Virus record (IMG/VR): IMGVR_UViG_3300037067_018977
Direction: 5' to 3' (one strand)
From: an uncultured virus (IMG/VR IMGVR_UViG_3300037067_018977)
Taxonomy: Duplodnaviria; Heunggongvirae; Uroviricota; Caudoviricetes
DNA length: 64,000 nucleotides
The position numbers were made by a program, and so were the translations under genes. Under the pieces are notes generated by a model. The model made no database searches and was not told the origin of the DNA. It worked only from the letters and a program-made list of their open reading frames with translations. This document shows positions 5,455-56,633 of this stretch, in pieces; the first letter of the stretch is position 1, and the number at the start of each line of letters is the position of its first letter.

Positions 5455-6208
5455 CCTGACCGAGCAAGAACTGCTTGCAGAGACGTCCGCTTTCTGGCAG
5501 GCGGCCGCTCGGCGCGAGCAGAGCTGTCAACGCTGTCCCGAGCACGGCGGCGCATGCGCAGCAGAACTCGGTTGCTTGCCGCCAGGGAGCTACCTCGCGT
5601 GGATCGAGCGTCGCCCGCGTGCTCAAGCTTGCCAGCGTTGGACCGAGCACGAGCTACGCCAGCGTCTCGCTGAAGCCGGTGTGCCATTTCGACTGCAAGG
5701 CTGCCGCGCCGACACGTTTCAGGTGGATACTGACCAGCAACATCAGGCCCATCTCGAAGTCGGCGAGCTGGTCAAGCTGTGGACCAAATCCAGGGAGCTA
5801 CATTCCGGTAGCCCATGGATCGTTCTGTGCGGCTCGCACGGCACAGGCAAGAGTCACCTGCTCGCCGCCGCGCTGCGCACCGTGCGCCGCCTGCGCCCGG
5901 CGTTTCACGTTTGGTATCAGGACGCGACCGAGCTGGCCTCGTTGCTCCAAAACTTTTTCGACAACCGAGACACCACGCCGGATCCCATGGAGCGTCTGGC
6001 GGAGACCAGTCTGCTCGCATTCGACAACGTCGATCCTGGGAGTTGGAAACCGTGGCTTCAAAAGTCCGTCGAGGAGCTGCTCGTGCAGCGTTGGAATCGC
6101 GGGCTCGCTACCTTGTTGGCGACCCACCAAACTCCTGACGCACTGCTGCAAGCACTCAGGTCTCTCACAGAGCTACGTTCGGGGGCAGCGTGGTGCACGC
6201 TGGGATGA
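5303..6208 (+). CDS. DnaC/IstB-like AAA+ helicase loader
   Basis: Walker A GSHGTGKS, Walker B LLAFDN, N-terminal Cys cluster; start could be 5285. Confidence 0.85.
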   Translation: METMGSELTKLAQALQDTRQEDHHHLRVVVEQAGGAAAWLNSLGLGGHPADLTEQELLAETSAFWQAAARREQSCQRCPEHGGACAAELGCLPPGSYLAWIERRPRAQACQRWTEHELRQRLAEAGVPFRLQGCRADTFQVDTDQQHQAHLEVGELVKLWTKSRELHSGSPWIVLCGSHGTGKSHLLAAALRTVRRLRPAFHVWYQDATELASLLQNFFDNRDTTPDPMERLAETSLLAFDNVDPGSWKPWLQKSVEELLVQRWNRGLATLLATHQTPDALLQALRSLTELRSGAAWCTLG

Positions 6209-8883
6209 GCGTGCAAAGTAGGCAACCCCAGCGCTCGCGGGAGGGTCGTGTTCCCCCGCATGATCTCGAAGCCGAAGCGGCGGTGCTGTCGAGCTGCATG
6301 CTGGACAAGGCAGCGTTGGACACTGTGCGGGGCTTGATCGCGCCCGAGCACTGCTACGCCGATGCGAATCGCCGCATCCTCGAAGCGGTCTTTGCGTTGG
6401 ACGATGCGGGTCACCCGGTCGACGTTGTCACCGTGGCCACCAAGCTACGCGAGCAGAACCGCCTCGAACAGAGCGGCGGCACGGTGTACCTCGCGTCGAT
6501 CACCGATGCTACTCCAGCCGTCGCGCACGTCGATCACCACGCCAAGACGGTGCGAGATCTGTGGCGCGTGCGCCAAGCCATCGCGCTGCACCAGACCAAG
6601 GCAGCGGAGGGATTCTTCGGGATCGAGTCCGTGCAAGAGTGGCTGGAGCAGACCGAGACCGCACTTAGCGGGATCGGCTCGGTCGGCTACGGCACGGAGC
6701 TGGAGGGCATCGGGACGATCGCAGCGCGCTACTACCAGTCGATGGTGGCCGCGAAGCAACGTGGTCAGGCGATTCTGGGTACTGCCACGGGATTCACGGA
6801 TCTCGACGAGCGCACCGGTGGGCTATTTGACGGCGATCTGACCATCGTGGCGGCTCGCCCCGGCTTGGGAAAGACGTCGCTAGCCACCGCGCTCGCCCGC
6901 AACGTCGCCGGCTCAGGCGAAGGCGTTGCCTTCTTCTCTCTGGAGATGCCGCGTGACCAGATCGCGATGCGCATGCTGTGTGCGGAGGAATATTTGGACG
7001 CGAACCGCATTCGTCGCGGTCAGCTTTCTGCCGATGACTGGAGTCGACTCATGCGTGGCACTACCACGCTCGCGAGCCTACCCATCTGGGTGGACGACAC
7101 GCCTGCGATCACCGTTCAGGAACTGCGCGCGAAGGTGCGCCGGTTGCAGCGTCAGATCTTGCAAGCGCCCACCGAGCACTGTCGGAAGCTCGGGCTCGTC
7201 GCGGTCGACTACCTGCAGCTCATGAAGGGGATCCGAGAGAAGGGCGACACACGCGAGCGCGAGGTGGCTTCCCTGAGTCAGGGGCTCAAGAATTTGGCCA
7301 AGCAGCTGCGCCTGCCAGTGGTTGCGCTCTCCCAGCTCAACCGCTCGGTGGAGAAGAAGGGCAGCGACAAGCGACCTCAGCTCAGTGATCTGCGGGAATG
7401 TATCCCCGGTGACGCGCGGGTATTGCTCGCGAACGGCCAGCGCGTGCGCATGGACACGCTGGTGGGCTCCGAGCGCTCCGTCGTCTGCTTGGACCCGGGT
7501 GCACTGAAGCTCACGGCGCGCCGTGCGCGTTTCGTGGAGGCGGGGCAGAAGGAAGTCTGGCGAGTGCGGCTACGCAGTGGCCGCAGCTTCCGCGCTTCGT
7601 TCGATCATCCGGTGCTCACGCTCCAGGGATGGAAACCCCTGAACCAGCTCCACCACCACGAAGAGATTGCGGTGCCGCGCGGATATCGGCTTACCGGTAC
7701 GCGCGTGATGGCTCCGGAGTTGGCGCGCCTGCTGGGCTACCTGGTTAGCAATGGATCGTACAAGCGTCTACGCTCAGTCGGTGTGACGCTGCCCGAGCCG
7801 GAGCTGAGGCAGGACGCGCAAACCATCGCACAGACGTATCTGGGCGTGCGTTGCCGCGAGCACAAACACTGGTCCGGCACGCACAGCATCGAGTTGACGA
7901 ACGTGGCCCGCGGCCCAGGAGGCAACGCAGCAATCAACTGGCTTCGGGAGCTGGGAATCCACGGCCACGCTACCCCCGAAAAGCGCACCCCGGAGATCCT
8001 GTTTGGAGCCGACAGCGTTGTCCTCGGTCAATACATTGCAGGCCTCTACGCGGGCGACGGCAGCGTGGTGCGACGGCGGCGCGGCGGATGGACCATCAAG
8101 TATGTTTCGACGAGCATGGAGTTACTCAGGGAGATTCAACACCTGCTTCTGCGACTCGGTGTGATGGCGGTGCTCGGTAAACCCACGCGCCACACCAAAT
8201 CCACGGTGGACATCGCGGAACTGCGGATCTCCGACAAAGCGAACGTGCTGGCTTTCGCTCGCGCCGTACCCATCCCAGGAAAAAAAGGGAAGCGACTCCA
8301 GCGTGCGGCCGCGGAGTCCCAGGGGCGCACTAACGAGCACCATGACCGGCTGCCCAACGTAGTAGAACGCGCGCTCCGGGTGTTCATGCTGGCGCGCGGT
8401 ATTCGCTACCGGGACGCGGGCTACATTTGTCAGCGCAAACGCATTAACCGGCAAGCGCTGGGCGCGCTCGCTCATAAACTCACCGCGCTCGGTCACGACG
8501 GGGAAGAGACCCGCCACTGGGCAATGCTTGCAGAAAGCGACGTGCTCTGGGACGCGGTGGAGTCGGTTCAGCGGGAAGGCGTCGAGCCGGTCTACGATGC
8601 AACCGTGGACGCCGCAGCAAACTTTATTGTGGACGATGTGATCGTGCACAACTCGGGAGCCATTGAAAACGATGCCGACTCGGTCTGGCTGCTCTACCGC
8701 GACAGCTACTATCACCGCGATGCAGGTCCCGAGGTGGAGCTGGACGTGGCCAAACAGCGCAACGGACCCACCGGCGTGGTCAAGCTGATGTTCCGGGGGA
8801 AAAACATGCGCTACGACAACGCCGAGCTTGCGGACGACTACGGCGTGGCCACCGGCGCCAACGAATGGGACGCCAATGTCTGA
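6205..8883 (+). CDS. dnaB: replicative DNA helicase DnaB containing an intein
   Basis: PPHDLEAE, AARPGLGKT, FSLEM, VDYLQLM, LSQLNR, RPQLSDLRE/SGAIENDAD, KQRNGPTG motifs. Confidence 0.97.
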   Translation: MSVQSRQPQRSREGRVPPHDLEAEAAVLSSCMLDKAALDTVRGLIAPEHCYADANRRILEAVFALDDAGHPVDVVTVATKLREQNRLEQSGGTVYLASITDATPAVAHVDHHAKTVRDLWRVRQAIALHQTKAAEGFFGIESVQEWLEQTETALSGIGSVGYGTELEGIGTIAARYYQSMVAAKQRGQAILGTATGFTDLDERTGGLFDGDLTIVAARPGLGKTSLATALARNVAGSGEGVAFFSLEMPRDQIAMRMLCAEEYLDANRIRRGQLSADDWSRLMRGTTTLASLPIWVDDTPAITVQELRAKVRRLQRQILQAPTEHCRKLGLVAVDYLQLMKGIREKGDTREREVASLSQGLKNLAKQLRLPVVALSQLNRSVEKKGSDKRPQLSDLRECIPGDARVLLANGQRVRMDTLVGSERSVVCLDPGALKLTARRARFVEAGQKEVWRVRLRSGRSFRASFDHPVLTLQGWKPLNQLHHHEEIAVPRGYRLTGTRVMAPELARLLGYLVSNGSYKRLRSVGVTLPEPELRQDAQTIAQTYLGVRCREHKHWSGTHSIELTNVARGPGGNAAINWLRELGIHGHATPEKRTPEILFGADSVVLGQYIAGLYAGDGSVVRRRRGGWTIKYVSTSMELLREIQHLLLRLGVMAVLGKPTRHTKSTVDIAELRISDKANVLAFARAVPIPGKKGKRLQRAAAESQGRTNEHHDRLPNVVERALRVFMLARGIRYRDAGYICQRKRINRQALGALAHKLTALGHDGEETRHWAMLAESDVLWDAVESVQREGVEPVYDATVDAAANFIVDDVIVHNSGAIENDADSVWLLYRDSYYHRDAGPEVELDVAKQRNGPTGVVKLMFRGKNMRYDNAELADDYGVATGANEWDANV
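7399..8652 (+). mobile_element. intein (418 aa) with LAGLIDADG homing endonuclease domain
   Basis: Begins CIPGDARV, block B ASFDHPVL, LLGYLVSNG and IAGLYAGDG motifs, ends VIVHN followed by Ser. Confidence 0.95.
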
Positions 8884-21490: not shown

Positions 21491-22733
21491 ATGCGAGCGT
21501 ATGGAAAGAAAGGCCGAGCAGCGCCGCCCGCGGAGCTGACGCGACGCCAGCGCGAAGCGTTGCTCGCCTATGCAGCGTACCACGGGCGCAACTGGAAGGC
21601 CGAGCTAGCCGGAGACTGGACCCGCGCTGCCGCCAACGTGGGCGGGGAGTACCGGGCGGAGCTGCAGCAGATCCGCAACACGCTCGGGCCGGCGTGGCTG
21701 AAGAAAGTCACGCTGGCGGAGATCCAGAGCGCGGCGCCCGGTGCGACCGAAAGCCTGGAGGACGCCATTCTGGAGCACGCGCGCGATCCGGTCGGCACGT
21801 TGCGACCGGGCATGAAGTTCGGGGACATGACGATCACCCAGGTGGGTACGCACACGGTGGTGTACCAGCGCCCCGGCGGCTGGCGCGGCTCGGTGCAGAT
21901 CCCGTTCCTCGATCCGGTCAGCGGTGTCGAGCTTCCGTCGCATCGGAGAGCGCTGGCGGAATTTGGGATGGAAAAGAATGCAGCGGACCCTCGCCGCCCA
22001 GTGCAGGAAGAGGTCCCCGGTACGACCCCGATCGCCAACGCGAGCGAGGTGGACTTCTTCGAAGACAACACCTTCGTGCGCGAGGGTCCGCTCTGGCTCT
22101 TCAGCTTCGGAGCCTACGGAGCGACCCACNNNNNNNNNNGTCTACGTCTGGGCGGACGGCATGGAGAGCGGGTTCGAGACGGCGGTGGAGTGGCTGGACG
22201 ATAACGCCCCTGGCCTGCTCGTGATGGTCGACGAGAACGACTACCGCCGTGCGGCGGAAGATCTCGGCAAGGTCTGGGATCCGAGCGAGCCGGACGACGA
22301 GATCATGCAAGCCGCCGAAGCGGACATGACGATGATCGGCCACACCACGCTCCAGCACGGCAACGCGGTGGCGAGCTGGGAGTGGCACGTGCGCGAGGTG
22401 AAGAAGGGCTCGCCCGAGTGGAACCAAGTGGTCGAGCGCTCGCGCGAGGAGAGCGGAGAGTTCGAAGAGAACGCTTCGAAATCGCAAAGCGTGGTGTTGG
22501 CGGCGCTTCGTGGGAAGAGCGCAAAAGCGGGGGCATTTCACACCGTCGGGGGCATCGTGTACTCGTACAACTTGCCCATCGCGGATCTGAGAAACCCAGA
22601 GGGACCCTTCTACGTGCTGGACAAGATTGCCTCACCCAGCGTCACAACGAGCAAGCACATTGGTTTCGTCCGAACGTGGCTGGCGCACATCAAGTCCTGG
22701 CTGCCCATCGAGACGGTGAGCGCAATCGGTTGA
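21491..22733 (+). CDS. multi-module hypothetical protein spanning an assembly gap
   Basis: Two ORF-track frames join across the N run at about 22130-22139. Confidence 0.6.
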
Positions 22734-31365: not shown

Positions 31366-31551
31366 CGCAAGCAGAGGCTCCTGCCGCGCTCCTGGTCCGA
31401 GCGCGACTTGAAGCAGGGGCTCCACCGACCAGCCCAGGAGGTTCCGGAAAACCGGTTCCCTGGGCTGGGGTGTTCGTAACGAAACCTGAACGCAGAGCCG
31501 CAGCGGAACCAGGCCGCTTCAACAACGGTAGCTCTGCAGGAGAGAGAGAAA

Positions 31552-33873
31552 ATGGCCAAAGTCGTTTCGATCCGCGAGCGTGTTCATCAGCCTCAGAGAG
31601 GGGCCTGATCGGAGCAATCCGATCAGCAAACCGGGTGAATTCGGGGAAACCTACCGTGGGAGCGCGAGCTGCTACGGCAATCCCGAGCCAAGCCGACCGA
31701 AGGGTATTGAAGTAGGTCGGAAGGTGTAGAGGCCAAGCTGTGACGAACCCGTCGAATAAACAGCTCTTGAGCGCCCGGCATCCGCAGCCGAGGCAGTGGT
31801 TTGCCACCACTGTGGCAGCGGATGATGAGATGGTCCGATCCCCCGTGAAAGCGGGAGACAAATCGTTCTACGACACGCTCGTTCGCACTGCGGGCTTGAC
31901 GCCCGGAGCGCTGACCGACACCACGTCGCTCTTCACGAGCAACGGGGCACGCACGGAAGCCACCACCAACCTGATCAACGGCAGCACGCTGCCGTCGGAT
32001 CAGAGCCACGTGGTGCTCGCCCTGCGCGTCTTCGCGTGGTTCCGCAACCCGATTCTCCGCATCGCAGGCGGAGACGCTGGCGAAGTCGCCCTGAACGGCG
32101 ACTACGGTACGGTGGCCCCCTGGCTTGCGGGTGGTCCGGGTGCGGGTCAAGCGCCCGGCCAGATCCAGGACTACTACCGCCTGATCTGGCAGACCGAGGA
32201 ACAGTTGCACTGGTCAACTAAGGCCCCCTGCGTGCGTGAGCGCGCAGGTGCACTGGGTGAATTCGGGGAAACCCCTGCTGCGATCTGCAGCGAGGCAATC
32301 CCGAGCCAAGCCGACGGAAGCGAACACGCGCGCAAGCACGTGTGTACGTCGGAAGGTGTAGAGACTAGCTGTCGAGGATTCGCGTCCGATAAGGCAGCCA
32401 CGAGCGCCCAGCGTCTGCTCCGAGCAGATGAAGAGATAGTCCATGCCTGCGTGAAAGCGCAGGAAACACATGCTTTCGGTACGGGTCTCAAGAACTCCAT
32501 CGACAACATGCCCACGTGGTCAAACAAGGCCCCCGGCGCGCGTGAGTGCGCCGGTGTACCGGGTGAATTCGGGGAAACCCCTGCTGCATCGTGCAGCGAG
32601 GCAATCCCGAGCCAAGCCGACGGAAGCGAACACGCTCACAGCGTGTGTACGTCGGAAGGTGTAGAGACTAGCTGCCGAGGATTCGCGTCCGATAAGGCAG
32701 CCACGAGCGCCCGGCGACTGCAGAGAAGCAGCCGAAGAGATAGTCCGTGCCTGTGCGAAAGCACGGGACCAGCACGACTTCCCGGCCGGCGGCGGGATCA
32801 GCGGAGACAACGGTGCCTCCACGGATCTCATCCACTGGCAGAACTCGGGTACCGATGGGCATTCCGGAATCCTCCGCCTCAACTGAGGGGCCTTCGCAGC
32901 GTGAGCTGCGTCGAACAACGGGGTGAATTCGGGGAACGGCCTGCACGTGTCCACGTGCGACCCAATCCCGAGCGAAGCCACCAGCGAGCTTTTCGTGCTG
33001 GTGGAACGTGTAGAGAGCAGGGAGTGAGCTGGCTCAGCAATAAGCTCCCCACGAGCGCCCCGCATCTCCGAACCACGGAGATGGTGATGTGCTCCACGCC
33101 CATGCGAAAGCATGGGGATACGTGCGCGCGCGCGGTACTGATCCCGCCTCGGCAGAACATCCTCTGCGCGGCGAAGATCTTCGCGCTTCCGGACGGTGGA
33201 CAAGCGACGGTGTTCGGGACGACTCAGGGGAGCCGCAACATGCTCTCTCTGAAGGACAACCTGAACGCGGTCGACGCGGTGCAGAAGGTCAAAGGAAGGC
33301 CCTGCCACGGAGTGATCCGTGAGCAGCAACTGGGTGAATTCGGGGAAACCCCTGCTGCATCGTGCAGCGAGGCAATCCCGAGCCAAGCCGACGGAAGCGA
33401 ACACGCTCACAGTGTGTGTACGTCGGAAGGTGTAGAGACTAGCTGCCGAGGATTCGCGTCCGATAAAGCAGCCACGAGCGCCCGGCACCTGCTCGCAACA
33501 GGTGAAGATATAGTCCAACCCCCGTCGAAAGCCGGGACCAGGTTGCATCACCTTCACGTTCGACGGTCAACGCAGAGCTGCACTCGCAGCATGAGGCCGT
33601 CACGAAACCCACCTCAAACGGGGAAACCCTTCCAGGGCAATCCCGTGCCGAGCGCCAACGACGAGTTGGCGAAGGGCGTAGAGACTTCCGCAAGAGCCCA
33701 CCAGATGGTGCTGGGGCTCGAAGCGGTCAGCGGAGCAGGGGCAGAACCTGCGCTGCTGAACGGTGGGCGGATCCAGGCTGTGGCAACCACCACGGCGTCG
33801 AGGATCCGATGGGATAGTCCGAACCTGCCGGCAACGGCAGAACCATCCGCTCTTCAGCCGCGACGTGCAGTGA
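31552..33873 (+). CDS. putative major capsid protein (single jelly-roll-like), 250 aa, spliced: join(31552-31593,31866-32214,32473-32520,32777-32879,33125-33289,33546-33567,33850-33873)
   Basis: SD AGGAGAG; exons total 753 nt and give a stop-free frame MAKVVSIRERVHQP/FYDTL...LHW/SFGTG...PTW/YFPAGGG...ILR/LARAV...QK/VITFTFDG/LFSRDVQ*. Capsid identity is inferred from position and beta-rich composition. Confidence 0.85.
31594..31865 (+). ncRNA. group I intron 1 (272 nt)
   Basis: P1 GCCU|C:GGGGC with U-G pair; P GTGAATTCGGGGAAAC; Q CAATCCCGAGC; P7 GGCCA/TGGTC; P9.0 GAT/ATC; terminal G. Confidence 0.92.
32215..32472 (+). ncRNA. group I intron 2 (258 nt)
   Basis: P1 GGU|C:GGCC; R GTAGAGACTA; S AAGAGATAGTCC; P9.0 ATG/CAT; terminal G. 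Confidence 0.93.
32521..32776 (+). ncRNA. group I intron 3 (256 nt)
   Basis: Same core as intron 2; P9.0 GTG/CAC; terminal G. Confidence 0.93.
32880..33124 (+). ncRNA. group I intron 4 (245 nt)
   Basis: P1 GCCU|C:GGGGC; P7 covariant GAGCA/TGCTC; P3 CGGGG/CCCCG; P9.0 ACG/CGT. Confidence 0.92.
33290..33545 (+). ncRNA. group I intron 5 (256 nt)
   Basis: Canonical S element AAGATATAGTCC; core nearly identical to intron 3; P9.0 AAC/GTT. Confidence 0.93.
33568..33849 (+). ncRNA. group I intron 6 (282 nt, divergent)
   Basis: P1 GACGGU|C:GGCCGUC; CAAACGGGGAAAC and CAATCCCGTGCC; GTAGAGACTT / GGGATAGTCC; P3 CCCACC/GGTGGG. Confidence 0.88.
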
Positions 33874-34005
33874 GCACGCCAGCATCCGGAGGGCCGGCCG
33901 CTTCGTGCAGCCGGTCCTTCGGGGCTGCCCTTCTCGCTGCCTGACAGAACTCCAGCGGTACGGCTGCCCTTCAGCCGGAACTCGTTTTTCACGAGGTACA
34001 AGACC

Positions 34006-34953
34006 ATGCCCCAGATCGATCTCAACGCCCTGATGCAGTCCGCGGGCTACGCGGTGAAGCAGAGCCGCGATGCGATGGCGCTCGCGCAGTCGATGGCGAA
34101 CGAGCATGCCGCGATGCGCGGCGAAATCGGACGCCTCGCCCAGAACNNNNNNNNNNTCAGTCGCGTGCAGGCGCAACGCGGCGCCGAACCGCCGGACATC
34201 CAGCGCATCGAGAACATCCCCGGTCGGCGCATCCCGTTCGACCTCCTGGTGGACATCCCGATCGACGCGCAGACCACCAGCGTGCAGCAAGGCACGATCA
34301 CGATCAGCCAGGAAGGTCCGTTCGTGGCGGTGGCCCGCTACGCGACGTTCCTGAGCGCGTTCAGCTACCAGGTCCGGAACCCGGCCGACGGCTCGATCGC
34401 GACGTTCAACGGGCGGAGCTTCGGCCGCTACCGACCGATCCACTCGGCCTGGGACCTGAACGACGGCCAGCCGTACACGCAGCTGATGATGGCCGCGCCG
34501 CCGCCCGGCACGGGCGCGCCGCACGTCATCTCGCCGGCCAACGCCTCGCCCTTCCGGACGATGCAGCCGGACTTCCGCATCAAGTTCGAGAACGCGGGCA
34601 GTAGCTTCCCCCGCTCGAACATCGAGGTGCCGTCCAGCTTCTGGACCACGCAGATCAACGAGCCGTTCAAGCTCGGCGCGCTGGACTTCTTCGAGCGCGG
34701 CGAGGTGCTCACGCTCAAGGTGCTGCCGCTTCACCCGAACAACCCCGCCTTCGGCAACCTCTCGGCGTACGGCGCCCCGAACCCCGCCTATCCGTTCCTG
34801 GACTCGGGCTGGGACGCGGTCGAGGGGATCAACGACCAGAACAACCCCGCTGCCGGAGATCTCGATCCGGTCACGCGCGTCCAGAACGGCATCCTCACCA
34901 TCGGCTTCCACGGCTACCGCATCGTGCAGCCGGCGGGGGCAGGGCCGTACTGA
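34006..34953 (+). CDS. putative second capsid (jelly-roll-like) protein
   Basis: Beta-rich, ends ILTIGFHGYRIV, follows the split gene; contains an N gap. Confidence 0.65.
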   Translation: MPQIDLNALMQSAGYAVKQSRDAMALAQSMANEHAAMRGEIGRLAQNXXXXSRVQAQRGAEPPDIQRIENIPGRRIPFDLLVDIPIDAQTTSVQQGTITISQEGPFVAVARYATFLSAFSYQVRNPADGSIATFNGRSFGRYRPIHSAWDLNDGQPYTQLMMAAPPPGTGAPHVISPANASPFRTMQPDFRIKFENAGSSFPRSNIEVPSSFWTTQINEPFKLGALDFFERGEVLTLKVLPLHPNNPAFGNLSAYGAPNPAYPFLDSGWDAVEGINDQNNPAAGDLDPVTRVQNGILTIGFHGYRIVQPAGAGPY

Positions 34954-56321: not shown

Positions 56322-56633
56322 AAGTCAGCGACTACCAGGACTTTTTCGACGTGCCCGTGGCTGTGCAACTTCGGCAGCCATCCATGATCGTGGACAACGA
56401 CGGGGAGCCCCGAAACCGGATGCAACATGGCAACCGGGAATATGGCGTGCCGCAGCCCGTGGTCATGCAGGGCAATCCAGCCGCTCAGCTCATGCTGGTG
56501 GGAGTCCTGGTTCCTTCCAAGAGCGAGGAGCTGTTGACGTTCCGGAGCAAAGGCGAGCGCGGCGCGGTGATCGTGACCACGCTGCTGCCCGATCAGATCN
56601 NNNNNNNNNGCTCATCACCTCGCCGGGGAACTG

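Follow-up and report, generated by a model that had tools for sequence, protein, structure and literature searches.

Can a phage gene of little more than seven hundred coding nucleotides (nt) be interrupted by six group I introns? The question is raised by positions 31552-33873, on the plus strand, of a 64,000-nt stretch of DNA from an uncultured virus assigned to Caudoviricetes (IMG/VR record IMGVR_UViG_3300037067_018977), which we refer to as the window. An original prediction, made from the letters of the window, had placed there a single short phage gene whose seven exons are separated by six compact group I introns. This central claim is supported by several independent lines of evidence. 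Our analysis indicates that the locus is very probably one gene for a highly conserved 250 amino acid (aa) beta-sandwich protein of a large uncultured high-GC phage, interrupted by six group I introns that carry no open reading frame (ORF). Five of them, members of one family, are likely endonuclease-less derivatives of ORF-bearing introns.

The locus consists of seven exons of 42, 349, 48, 103, 165, 22 and 24 nt and six inserts (I1 to I6), and all of the coordinates, sizes and counts given in the original prediction were reproduced. Joining the exons by script yielded a 753-nt coding sequence (CDS) that encodes 250 aa with 0 internal stops, as had been predicted, so that introns account for 1569 of the 2322 nt of the locus (67.6%, previously put at about two thirds). 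The spliced CDS has a coding-type composition, with a GC content at codon positions 1/2/3 of 0.61/0.49/0.82. The repeated elements that had been noticed as resembling the group I P, Q, R and S elements were also recovered, as two repeat families with six copies each, and the core pattern GAATTCGGGGAA-N15-45-CAATCCCGAGC occurs five times versus 0 times in 100 shuffles. A promoter and terminator scan gave no signal above chance. The features are listed below with the evidence for each, where RF00028 is an Rfam covariance model, P0001 is the closest homologue of the encoded protein, L142 is a metagenome contig with a homologous gene, and X2 and X21 are public sequencing runs that contain relatives of the phage.

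31538..31547 (+): putative ribosome-binding-site-like purine-rich stretch, 5 nt upstream of the ATG (reading of the sequence)
31552..31593 (+): exon 1, 42 nt, codons 1-14 (tblastn, 100% to P0001 residues 1-14)
31594..31865 (+): intron 1 (I1), group I, 272 nt, ORF-less (RF00028, 79.3 bits; fold; X2 and X21 contigs with the join of I1 to exon 2)
31866..32214 (+): exon 2, 349 nt (spliced translation, homologue alignment)
32215..32472 (+): intron 2 (I2), group I, 258 nt, ORF-less (RF00028, 63.0 bits; X21 joint 32214/32473)
32473..32520 (+): exon 3, 48 nt (homologue alignment, contigs)
32521..32776 (+): intron 3 (I3), group I, 256 nt, ORF-less (RF00028, 48.3 bits; X21 joint 32520/32777)
32777..32879 (+): exon 4, 103 nt (homologue alignment, contigs)
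32880..33124 (+): intron 4 (I4), group I, 245 nt, ORF-less (nhmmer, E = 1.3e-19; fold; X2 and X21 joint 32879/33125)
33125..33289 (+): exon 5, 165 nt (homologue alignment, contigs)
33290..33545 (+): intron 5 (I5), group I, 256 nt, ORF-less (RF00028, 65.8 bits; core identical to that of intron 3 at 153/156 positions)
33546..33567 (+): exon 6, 22 nt (homologue alignment)
33568..33849 (+): intron 6 (I6), divergent group I, 282 nt, ORF-less (L142 orthologue; fold; present in the X2 relative)
33850..33873 (+): exon 7, 24 nt including the TGA stop (homologue alignment)
31740..33944 (+): 734-codon ORF (translation table 11) through introns and out-of-frame exons; an annotation trap and no gene

The exon map was compared with homologues, which were retrieved from 5.8 billion proteins using the translation of exon 2 alone as the query (E ≤ 0.001). 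This search returned 263 relatives. Of the 120 listed, almost every one is an ORF of 249-255 aa with no interruption, and none has a Pfam domain or a name other than "hypothetical". Over its whole length, the spliced product can be aligned with 13/13 full-length homologues, all contiguous proteins of 249-251 aa, and the alignment is gap-free at all six junctions (a 14th aligned sequence, P0120, is the read-through ORF of an intron-bearing relative and is not counted among the 13). Identity reaches 97.2% to P0001 and 96% to P0002, and lies between 71 and 94% for the other full-length homologues. Contiguous, intronless homologues of the 250-aa protein therefore exist, the best at 97% identity, and they run across the predicted junctions instead of aligning through the inserts, the opposite of the outcome that the original prediction had named as refuting it. 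In addition, contigs of other public runs join positions 32214/32473, 32520/32777 and 32879/33125, which are the exact predicted ends of I2, I3, and I4. The exon map is thus established to the base. Neither a DNA search with the locus nor a tblastn search with the protein found a match among GenBank phages.

The group I identity of the inserts was analyzed with RF00028 at a threshold of 50 bits. I1 (79.3 bits), I5 (65.8 bits) and I2 (63.0 bits) score above this threshold and I3 (48.3 bits) just under it, with E-values at the locus down to 1.7e-18; no further match was found in the rest of the 64-kb window at E ≤ 0.1. An nhmmer profile built from I1, I2, I3 and I5 only found I4 over its full length (E = 1.3e-19). 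The same profile reached I6 with an E-value of only 0.21, on a 35-nt stretch, which indicates that I6 is a separate lineage. I6 has an orthologue of its own on L142 (positions 1544-1839), where an insert of 296 nt occupies the identical site in the homologous gene, and joint folding of the two recovered P3, P4, P5, P6, P7.1, P7.2 and P9, with 11/68 predicted pairs changed on both sides. Two patterns for I6-type introns gave 0 matches in IMG/VR. I1 to I5 form one family, in which P7 and P3' are separated by a single two-part hairpin; I6 is a divergent lineage with two hairpins in that position.

Segment-by-segment folding between conserved anchors gave the P1-P9 helix set in all six inserts, each of which is preceded by an exon U, starts with CA and ends in G. 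The splice-site U-G pair in P1 is present in 6/6 introns of the window, and in 7/7 rows of a covariation alignment (A5) composed of I1 to I5 and two short introns of relatives, with the structure taken from I2. The U-G pair and terminal G that had been predicted for every insert are thus found in all six, and the P3, P7 and P9.0 pairings that had been quoted are present as written. In A5, 84.2% of the cells pair, compared with 70.7% after shuffling (0/500 shuffles reach the observed value) and with 35-40% when the partners are slid, a control over which the observed alignment has an advantage, as its structure was derived from one aligned row. Changes on both sides occur in 42/81 pairs of this alignment. 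Pairing is complete (100% of the cells) in P3, P4, the outer stem of P6 and P7, and the hairpin between P7 and P3' has 6/6 outer pairs covarying and is 97.6% paired. I6 departs from this scheme in that its P7 forms 4/5 pairs, with one mismatch, a hairpin within the P1 loop replaces a separate P2, and two hairpins (P7.1 and P7.2), both kept in L142, lie between P7 and P3'. The original prediction had also suggested subgroup IA, and the P7-P3' helices of the six introns fit this subgroup, these helices being the sole basis of the assignment. Subgroup IA is marked by the extra helices P7.1 plus P7.1a or P7.2 between P7 and P3' (described in part in PMC3984707).

Synthesis of the 250-aa protein would need all six introns to be removed from the pre-mRNA, presumably by the standard group I route. 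In this route, free guanosine would attack after the exon U that is paired, as U-G, with the internal guide of the intron in P1, and the freed exon end would then attack after the last G of the intron. Two metatranscriptome runs, X21 and X22, contain relatives of the window phage only, and stretches of the locus that no run covers were given no weight as evidence. In X21, a 669-nt contig has exons 2, 3, 4 and 5 joined at the predicted bases, extending from the first base of exon 2 to one base past the end of exon 5, and a second contig, at about half the depth, has I1 joined to exon 2. A contig from the RNA library X22 has I4 joined to exon 5. The X21 pattern is that expected of a mixture of spliced and unspliced RNA, and a mixture of strains would give the same pattern. 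Since intron-less DNA alleles exist, the joined exons of X21 confirm the boundaries and are no proof of splicing. The proposal that splicing acts as a timer or gate on late expression was not supported: no evidence was found for it or against it.

Several observations weigh against the interpretation of the inserts as six spliced group I introns. The RF00028 search, which the original prediction had named as a check, bears it out for three of the six inserts, as I3 falls just below the threshold and I4 and I6 gave no match even when each was searched singly at E ≤ 10. The P1 helix is only 4-5 base pairs long in I1 to I5 (7 in I6), P10 appears weak or absent by eye for several introns, and the advantage of A5 over the slid controls has been mentioned. 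Apart from the window, I5 was seen in run X1 only, and this run is probably the source sample. Furthermore, the X21 contig with joined exons belongs to a relative, whose exon 2 has about 86% identity to that of the window, and may reflect intron-less DNA alleles. The RNA contigs stem from relatives, and splicing in the window phage itself is inferred.

Among the alternatives, the one that survives best, and which we still consider unlikely, is that these are group I introns that do not splice by themselves, either because a protein helper (a maturase or a host factor) is needed or because some copies are dead in a decaying allele. The very short P1 helices, the position of I4 and I6 outside the Rfam model and the P7 mismatch of I6 (4/5 pairs) would agree with this, and no intron of the window encodes a protein. 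Splicing that depends on the infected cell would also have a precedent in Bastillevirinae, where 4/8 spliced genes are reported to have been spliced only in infected cells (PMC11878797). A decaying allele is difficult to reconcile with exons that are all intact and in frame after intron removal, with a product 97% identical to uninterrupted homologues, and with compensatory changes that preserve the helices in every copy and argue for continued selection on the fold. We favor introns that are probably autocatalytic and are probably spliced.

An assembly artefact, in which repeated cores stitched different strains together and the six introns do not lie on one genome, is very improbable. The cores of I2, I3 and I5 are indeed 91-98% identical over ~160 nt, and these repeats interrupt the Logan contigs of run X1, of which no single listed piece spans the locus. 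However, the exon order is exactly that of the homologous protein, and the X1 contigs bridge I2-E3-I3, I3-E4-I4-E5-I5 and I5-E6-I6-E7 (E for exon). Contigs of X2, a DNA run from a different study, show I1-E2-I2, I2-E3-I3, I3-E4 and E6-I6-E7, and the X22 contig from an RNA library shows the I4-E5 join.

Finally, there is next to no probability that the 734-codon ORF is the real product, a repeat-containing protein with incidental RNA-like features, because, although the ORF is open over its whole length and such read-through ORFs have been deposited in protein databases (P0048, P0069 and P0120), it matches the true frame in no exons other than 2, 3 and 5, it continues beyond the conserved stop codon, nearly all of the 120 homologues listed among the 263 are about 250 aa long, the RF00028 E-values are as low as those given above, and its open frame through the cores is a relic, being the frame in which a LAGLIDADG gene overlaps the ribozyme core in relatives.

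The relatives of the locus differ in their intron content. We analyzed 110 related loci, of which 30 came from IMG/VR and the remainder were the best 80 of 271 metagenome loci (at least four contigs are in both sets), a selection that favors uninterrupted genes. A single intron is present in 13/110 loci, 12 of them at or adjoining site 1 and one at site 6 (L142), and none of the 110 has more than one. The site-1 introns match the I1-I5 family (nhmmer; E between 1e-14 and 1e-22 at ten loci, and 2e-4 at L141) and are inserted after nucleotide 43, one base further on than I1 of the window (nucleotide 42). They occur in a short form of ~270 nt and a long form of ~730-890 nt that contains a 200-233-aa ORF. 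The intron ORF of L159 scores 79.3 bits to LAGLIDADG_2; those of four other relatives score 17.6-18.9 bits, below the Pfam cut-offs, and one further ORF had no match. One of the 13 intron-bearing loci is the IMG/VR locus L014, which a locus search had reported as an uninterrupted match. At 5640-6045 it has an endonuclease-bearing intron that ends just before codon 15, and the endonuclease ORF overlaps the ribozyme core (P4-P7). None of the six introns of the window (245-282 nt) has an endonuclease gene inside it, in agreement with the original prediction. The I1-I5 family thus also occupies the first site of the gene in many relatives, often with a LAGLIDADG gene whose sequence overlaps that of the ribozyme core. 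Its members in the window are most likely endonuclease-less deletion derivatives that spread to further sites of the same gene.

The window phage is not alone in having several introns in this gene. Run X2, from another study, contains a relative that carries I1, I2, I3 and I6 and is without I4 and I5 (joint 33290/33548 at the I5 site). Further multi-intron alleles, and two extra sites after residues 56 and 151, can be inferred from the translations P0048 and P0069. The genomes of G001-G005, five complete relatives of 125-179 kb (four have direct terminal repeats), gave no RF00028 match at any position. The number of introns among relatives is therefore 0, 1, 4 or 6, and the nearest proteins (96-97% identity) are from uninterrupted ORFs.

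Beyond this gene, the P4-P5-P4' core word of the I1-I5 family occurs once each in 54 further viral contigs of IMG/VR (L031-L084; 2.7-543 kb), none of which shows a second copy nearby. Its occurrence in these contigs indicates that the intron family is widespread in uncultured phages. A contig of run X1 also shares the intron core and continues AT-rich on both sides (loose ends at window positions 33328 and 33487), which suggests a related group I intron carried by another organism of that community, one of low GC content. Another LAGLIDADG protein was found directly downstream of the homologous gene in L025/L026, members of a distant branch of the family (about 32% identity). This 544-aa ORF (6912-8543, plus strand; LAGLIDADG domains, 48.3 bits) represents a free-standing homing endonuclease or, alternatively, a gene with an intein.

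The open frame of the 734-codon ORF bears on the origin of the short introns. In the frame of the upstream exon, a stop follows after 4, 2, and 8 codons in I1, I4, and I6, respectively, whereas I2, I3 and I5 have no stop, versus 2.3-2.7 stops per frame in shuffles. In relatives, the LAGLIDADG gene enters the ribozyme core in the same frame as the open frame of I2, I3 and I5. Selection for a stop-free frame in these three introns was considered and rejected, as the endonuclease gene of relatives uses that frame and two of the three share the ancestral phase. The open frame is a relic of the lost endonuclease gene, and this supports the descent of the short introns from ORF-bearing ones. There is also a practical warning in this ORF, since gene callers make false long ORFs of the locus, and such ORFs are already in public protein collections.

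How could six introns come to reside in one gene? I2, I3 and I5 are paralogues that are mutually 76-86% identical overall, compared with 38-58% for the other pairs, and their likeness is a mosaic. Between I3 and I5, identity is 18/40 (45%) in P1-P2, 153/156 in the core from P3 to P3', and 40/62 (65%) in P8-P9; the corresponding values for I2 and I3 are 31/38, 146/159, and 45/62. The same three introns have the same target and guide, GGU followed by the C of the intron and paired with GGCC, and sites 2 and 3 also have a similar downstream CUU/UUC. Judging from these sequence comparisons, we read this pattern as the spread of one intron to new sites within the gene, after which the copies would have exchanged cores. 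Reverse splicing, recombination, or an endonuclease that acted in trans could each have been the route.

A more specific scenario can be proposed tentatively, and it is rather doubtful: a burst of RNA-level group I spread within one phage gene, with cores exchanged by gene conversion and with copies that perhaps shield endonuclease targets. ORF-less copies of one family would have reached new, non-allelic sites that have in common only a short word complementary to the guide, as reverse splicing would require. The cores of I3 and I5, unlike their P1-P2 and P8-P9 parts, would then have been homogenised by gene conversion. The copies may persist because each would destroy the target site of homing endonucleases carried by related phages at this gene. 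If true, the introns would be a record of RNA-level mobility within a single phage gene. As to where the introns lie, preferential insertion at the most conserved DNA was rejected as an explanation: the signal is modest, with a conservation of 0.872 at the six sites and 0.816 overall (18 sequences), 590/20000 random sets equal or better, and site 5 below average.

Some features of this locus have precedents in known systems. For Staphylococcus phage Twort orf142, three group I introns in one gene are reported (Landthaler and Shub, 1999). The Twort introns are reportedly of IA type with P7.1/P7.2. Like the present gene, orf142 is of unknown function and has several small group I introns that are free of ORFs, and its internal exons are short. 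It differs in having three introns instead of six, and in belonging to a phage of low-GC Firmicutes, in contrast to an uncultured phage with 66% GC. Near-identical paralogous cores at different sites are not known from Twort. The introns of T4 td, nrdB and nrdD belong to subgroup IA2. They share with the present introns their group I nature, IA-type P7-P3' helices, mobility by homing endonucleases, and the existence of defunct or ORF-less derivatives, but occur one per gene and in genes of nucleotide metabolism. The T4 td intron also has an early in-frame stop, unlike I2, I3 and I5 with no stop in the exon frame. Organelle genes (algal chloroplast rRNA and psbA, fungal cox1) are similar in that they can have at least five group I introns, both ORF-bearing and ORF-less, that are present or absent depending on the strain; they differ in their nuclear-encoded splicing factors, longer exons and different genome biology.

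Other intron-rich phages have also been described. In the crAss-like Zeta group, the major capsid gene is in five fragments separated by four inserts (Yutin et al., 2021; PMC7886860). This case also concerns an intron-saturated structural gene of an uncultured phage, with broken gene calling and a load that varies between related groups; it differs in its four inserts, of which three are known by intron-type protein domains, in its much longer gene, and in the spread of introns and inteins over many genes, with up to 14 introns per genome (PMC7886860). Here, in contrast, six ORF-less introns lie in 753 nt of CDS and no other was found in the 64 kb. Jug phages of the gut have on average 18.5 small introns per genome, of about 206 nt each, in genes in 2-3 fragments (PMC12363816, preprint), and Bastillevirinae polymerase and terminase genes have up to three group I introns (PMC11878797). 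Both share with the present phage many small group I introns in essential phage genes, and their splicing is supported by metatranscriptome or nanopore reads (PMC12363816, PMC11878797). They differ in having 2-3 fragments or up to three introns per gene, distributed genome-wide, compared with one short gene here.

A literature search for genes with four to seven group I introns gave organelle and rDNA cases, and the sole phage paper among the matches listed uses the words "five group I introns". No phage gene with more than three group I introns or more than four inserts was found in the literature searched, although supplementary tables may hold denser cases. The description of the locus as exceptional, made in the original prediction, therefore stands relative to the phage genes in this literature (with a maximum of three introns or four inserts) and does not extend to organelle genes. 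The kind of arrangement is known. New, as far as our searches reach, are how many introns there are, how densely they lie, their restriction to one gene and the presence of paralogous copies. Six introns in a 753-nt CDS correspond to one per 125 nt, with internal exons as short as 22 and 48 nt and a last exon of 24 nt, a density above anything we found described for a phage or bacterial protein gene. This raises the questions of how a transcript with six neighboring ribozymes can be folded and spliced correctly without loss of the tiny exons, when three of the ribozymes share one guide, how ORF-less introns gain new sites, and whether the introns shield the gene from the homing endonucleases of rival phages.

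The encoded protein was analyzed through an AlphaFold model of P0001 (107 homologues), which has a beta sandwich and one long helix, with a predicted local distance difference test (pLDDT) score of 78.6. Foldseek found no match to this model at E ≤ 0.001. In an all-against-all structure aligner, the top match was an SPV1 capsid chain (Z = 6.3, 130 residues aligned, root mean square deviation 3.9), followed by a phage tail fibre (Z = 5.5), an HHIV-2 capsid chain (Z = 5.2), and a capsid cement protein (Z = 4.8), all of these Z values, like those of the downstream gene below, being within the range that the aligner calls common. No HK97 protein is among the structural matches listed. Searches of Pfam and PHROGs gave no match for the 250-aa protein or a family for its neighbors, a profile search against Protein Data Bank sequences gave no match, and ESM Atlas returned only unnamed viral clusters, the nearest named entries (0.76-0.77) being a lead only. 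The proposal of a probable capsid gene was thus not supported: the model has a jelly-roll-like fold, and every structural match is weak, the top one included. A structural protein is a fair guess.

The neighboring genes have a GC content at third codon positions of 0.89-0.94. The next gene downstream (34006-34953, plus strand) is predicted to encode a 55-residue N-terminal helix and a beta-sandwich domain, with relatives in alignment A4. Its model is poor (pLDDT 61.9) and gives the same weak matches to jelly-roll capsid proteins (Z = 6.9-7.7). Two adjacent genes with jelly-roll-like models may recall viruses with two single-jelly-roll capsid proteins, with matches that are in the "common" range. 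The two products were also considered as paralogues, a candidate that was rejected because the hhalign probability is 3.3%, that is, no sequence relationship. Stretches of exactly 10 N occur in the window at 22130-22139, 34147-34156 and 56600-56609, the second of them inside this downstream gene.

Comparison of the 109 ORFs of the complete relative G002 with PHROGs recognised replication genes and no recognisable terminase, portal or capsid gene. Terminase_6N, TerL_ATPase and Phage_capsid were each found in 0/5 of the complete relatives, where the genes may still be present and go unrecognised. The virion module of this clade is unrecognisable to current profiles. No host signal was obtained, as nine loci among genome contigs fall in bins of scattered phyla.

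A second gene of the window also contains a mobile element. A DnaB-like helicase gene at 6190-8883 (plus strand; 897 aa) contains a LAGLIDADG intein (Intein_splicing, 65.5 bits; LAGLIDADG_3, 60.5 bits), whereas the helicase of G002 has 486 aa and no intein. Together with the intron-bearing gene, this comparison with G002 indicates that the window phage has more selfish elements in at least two genes.

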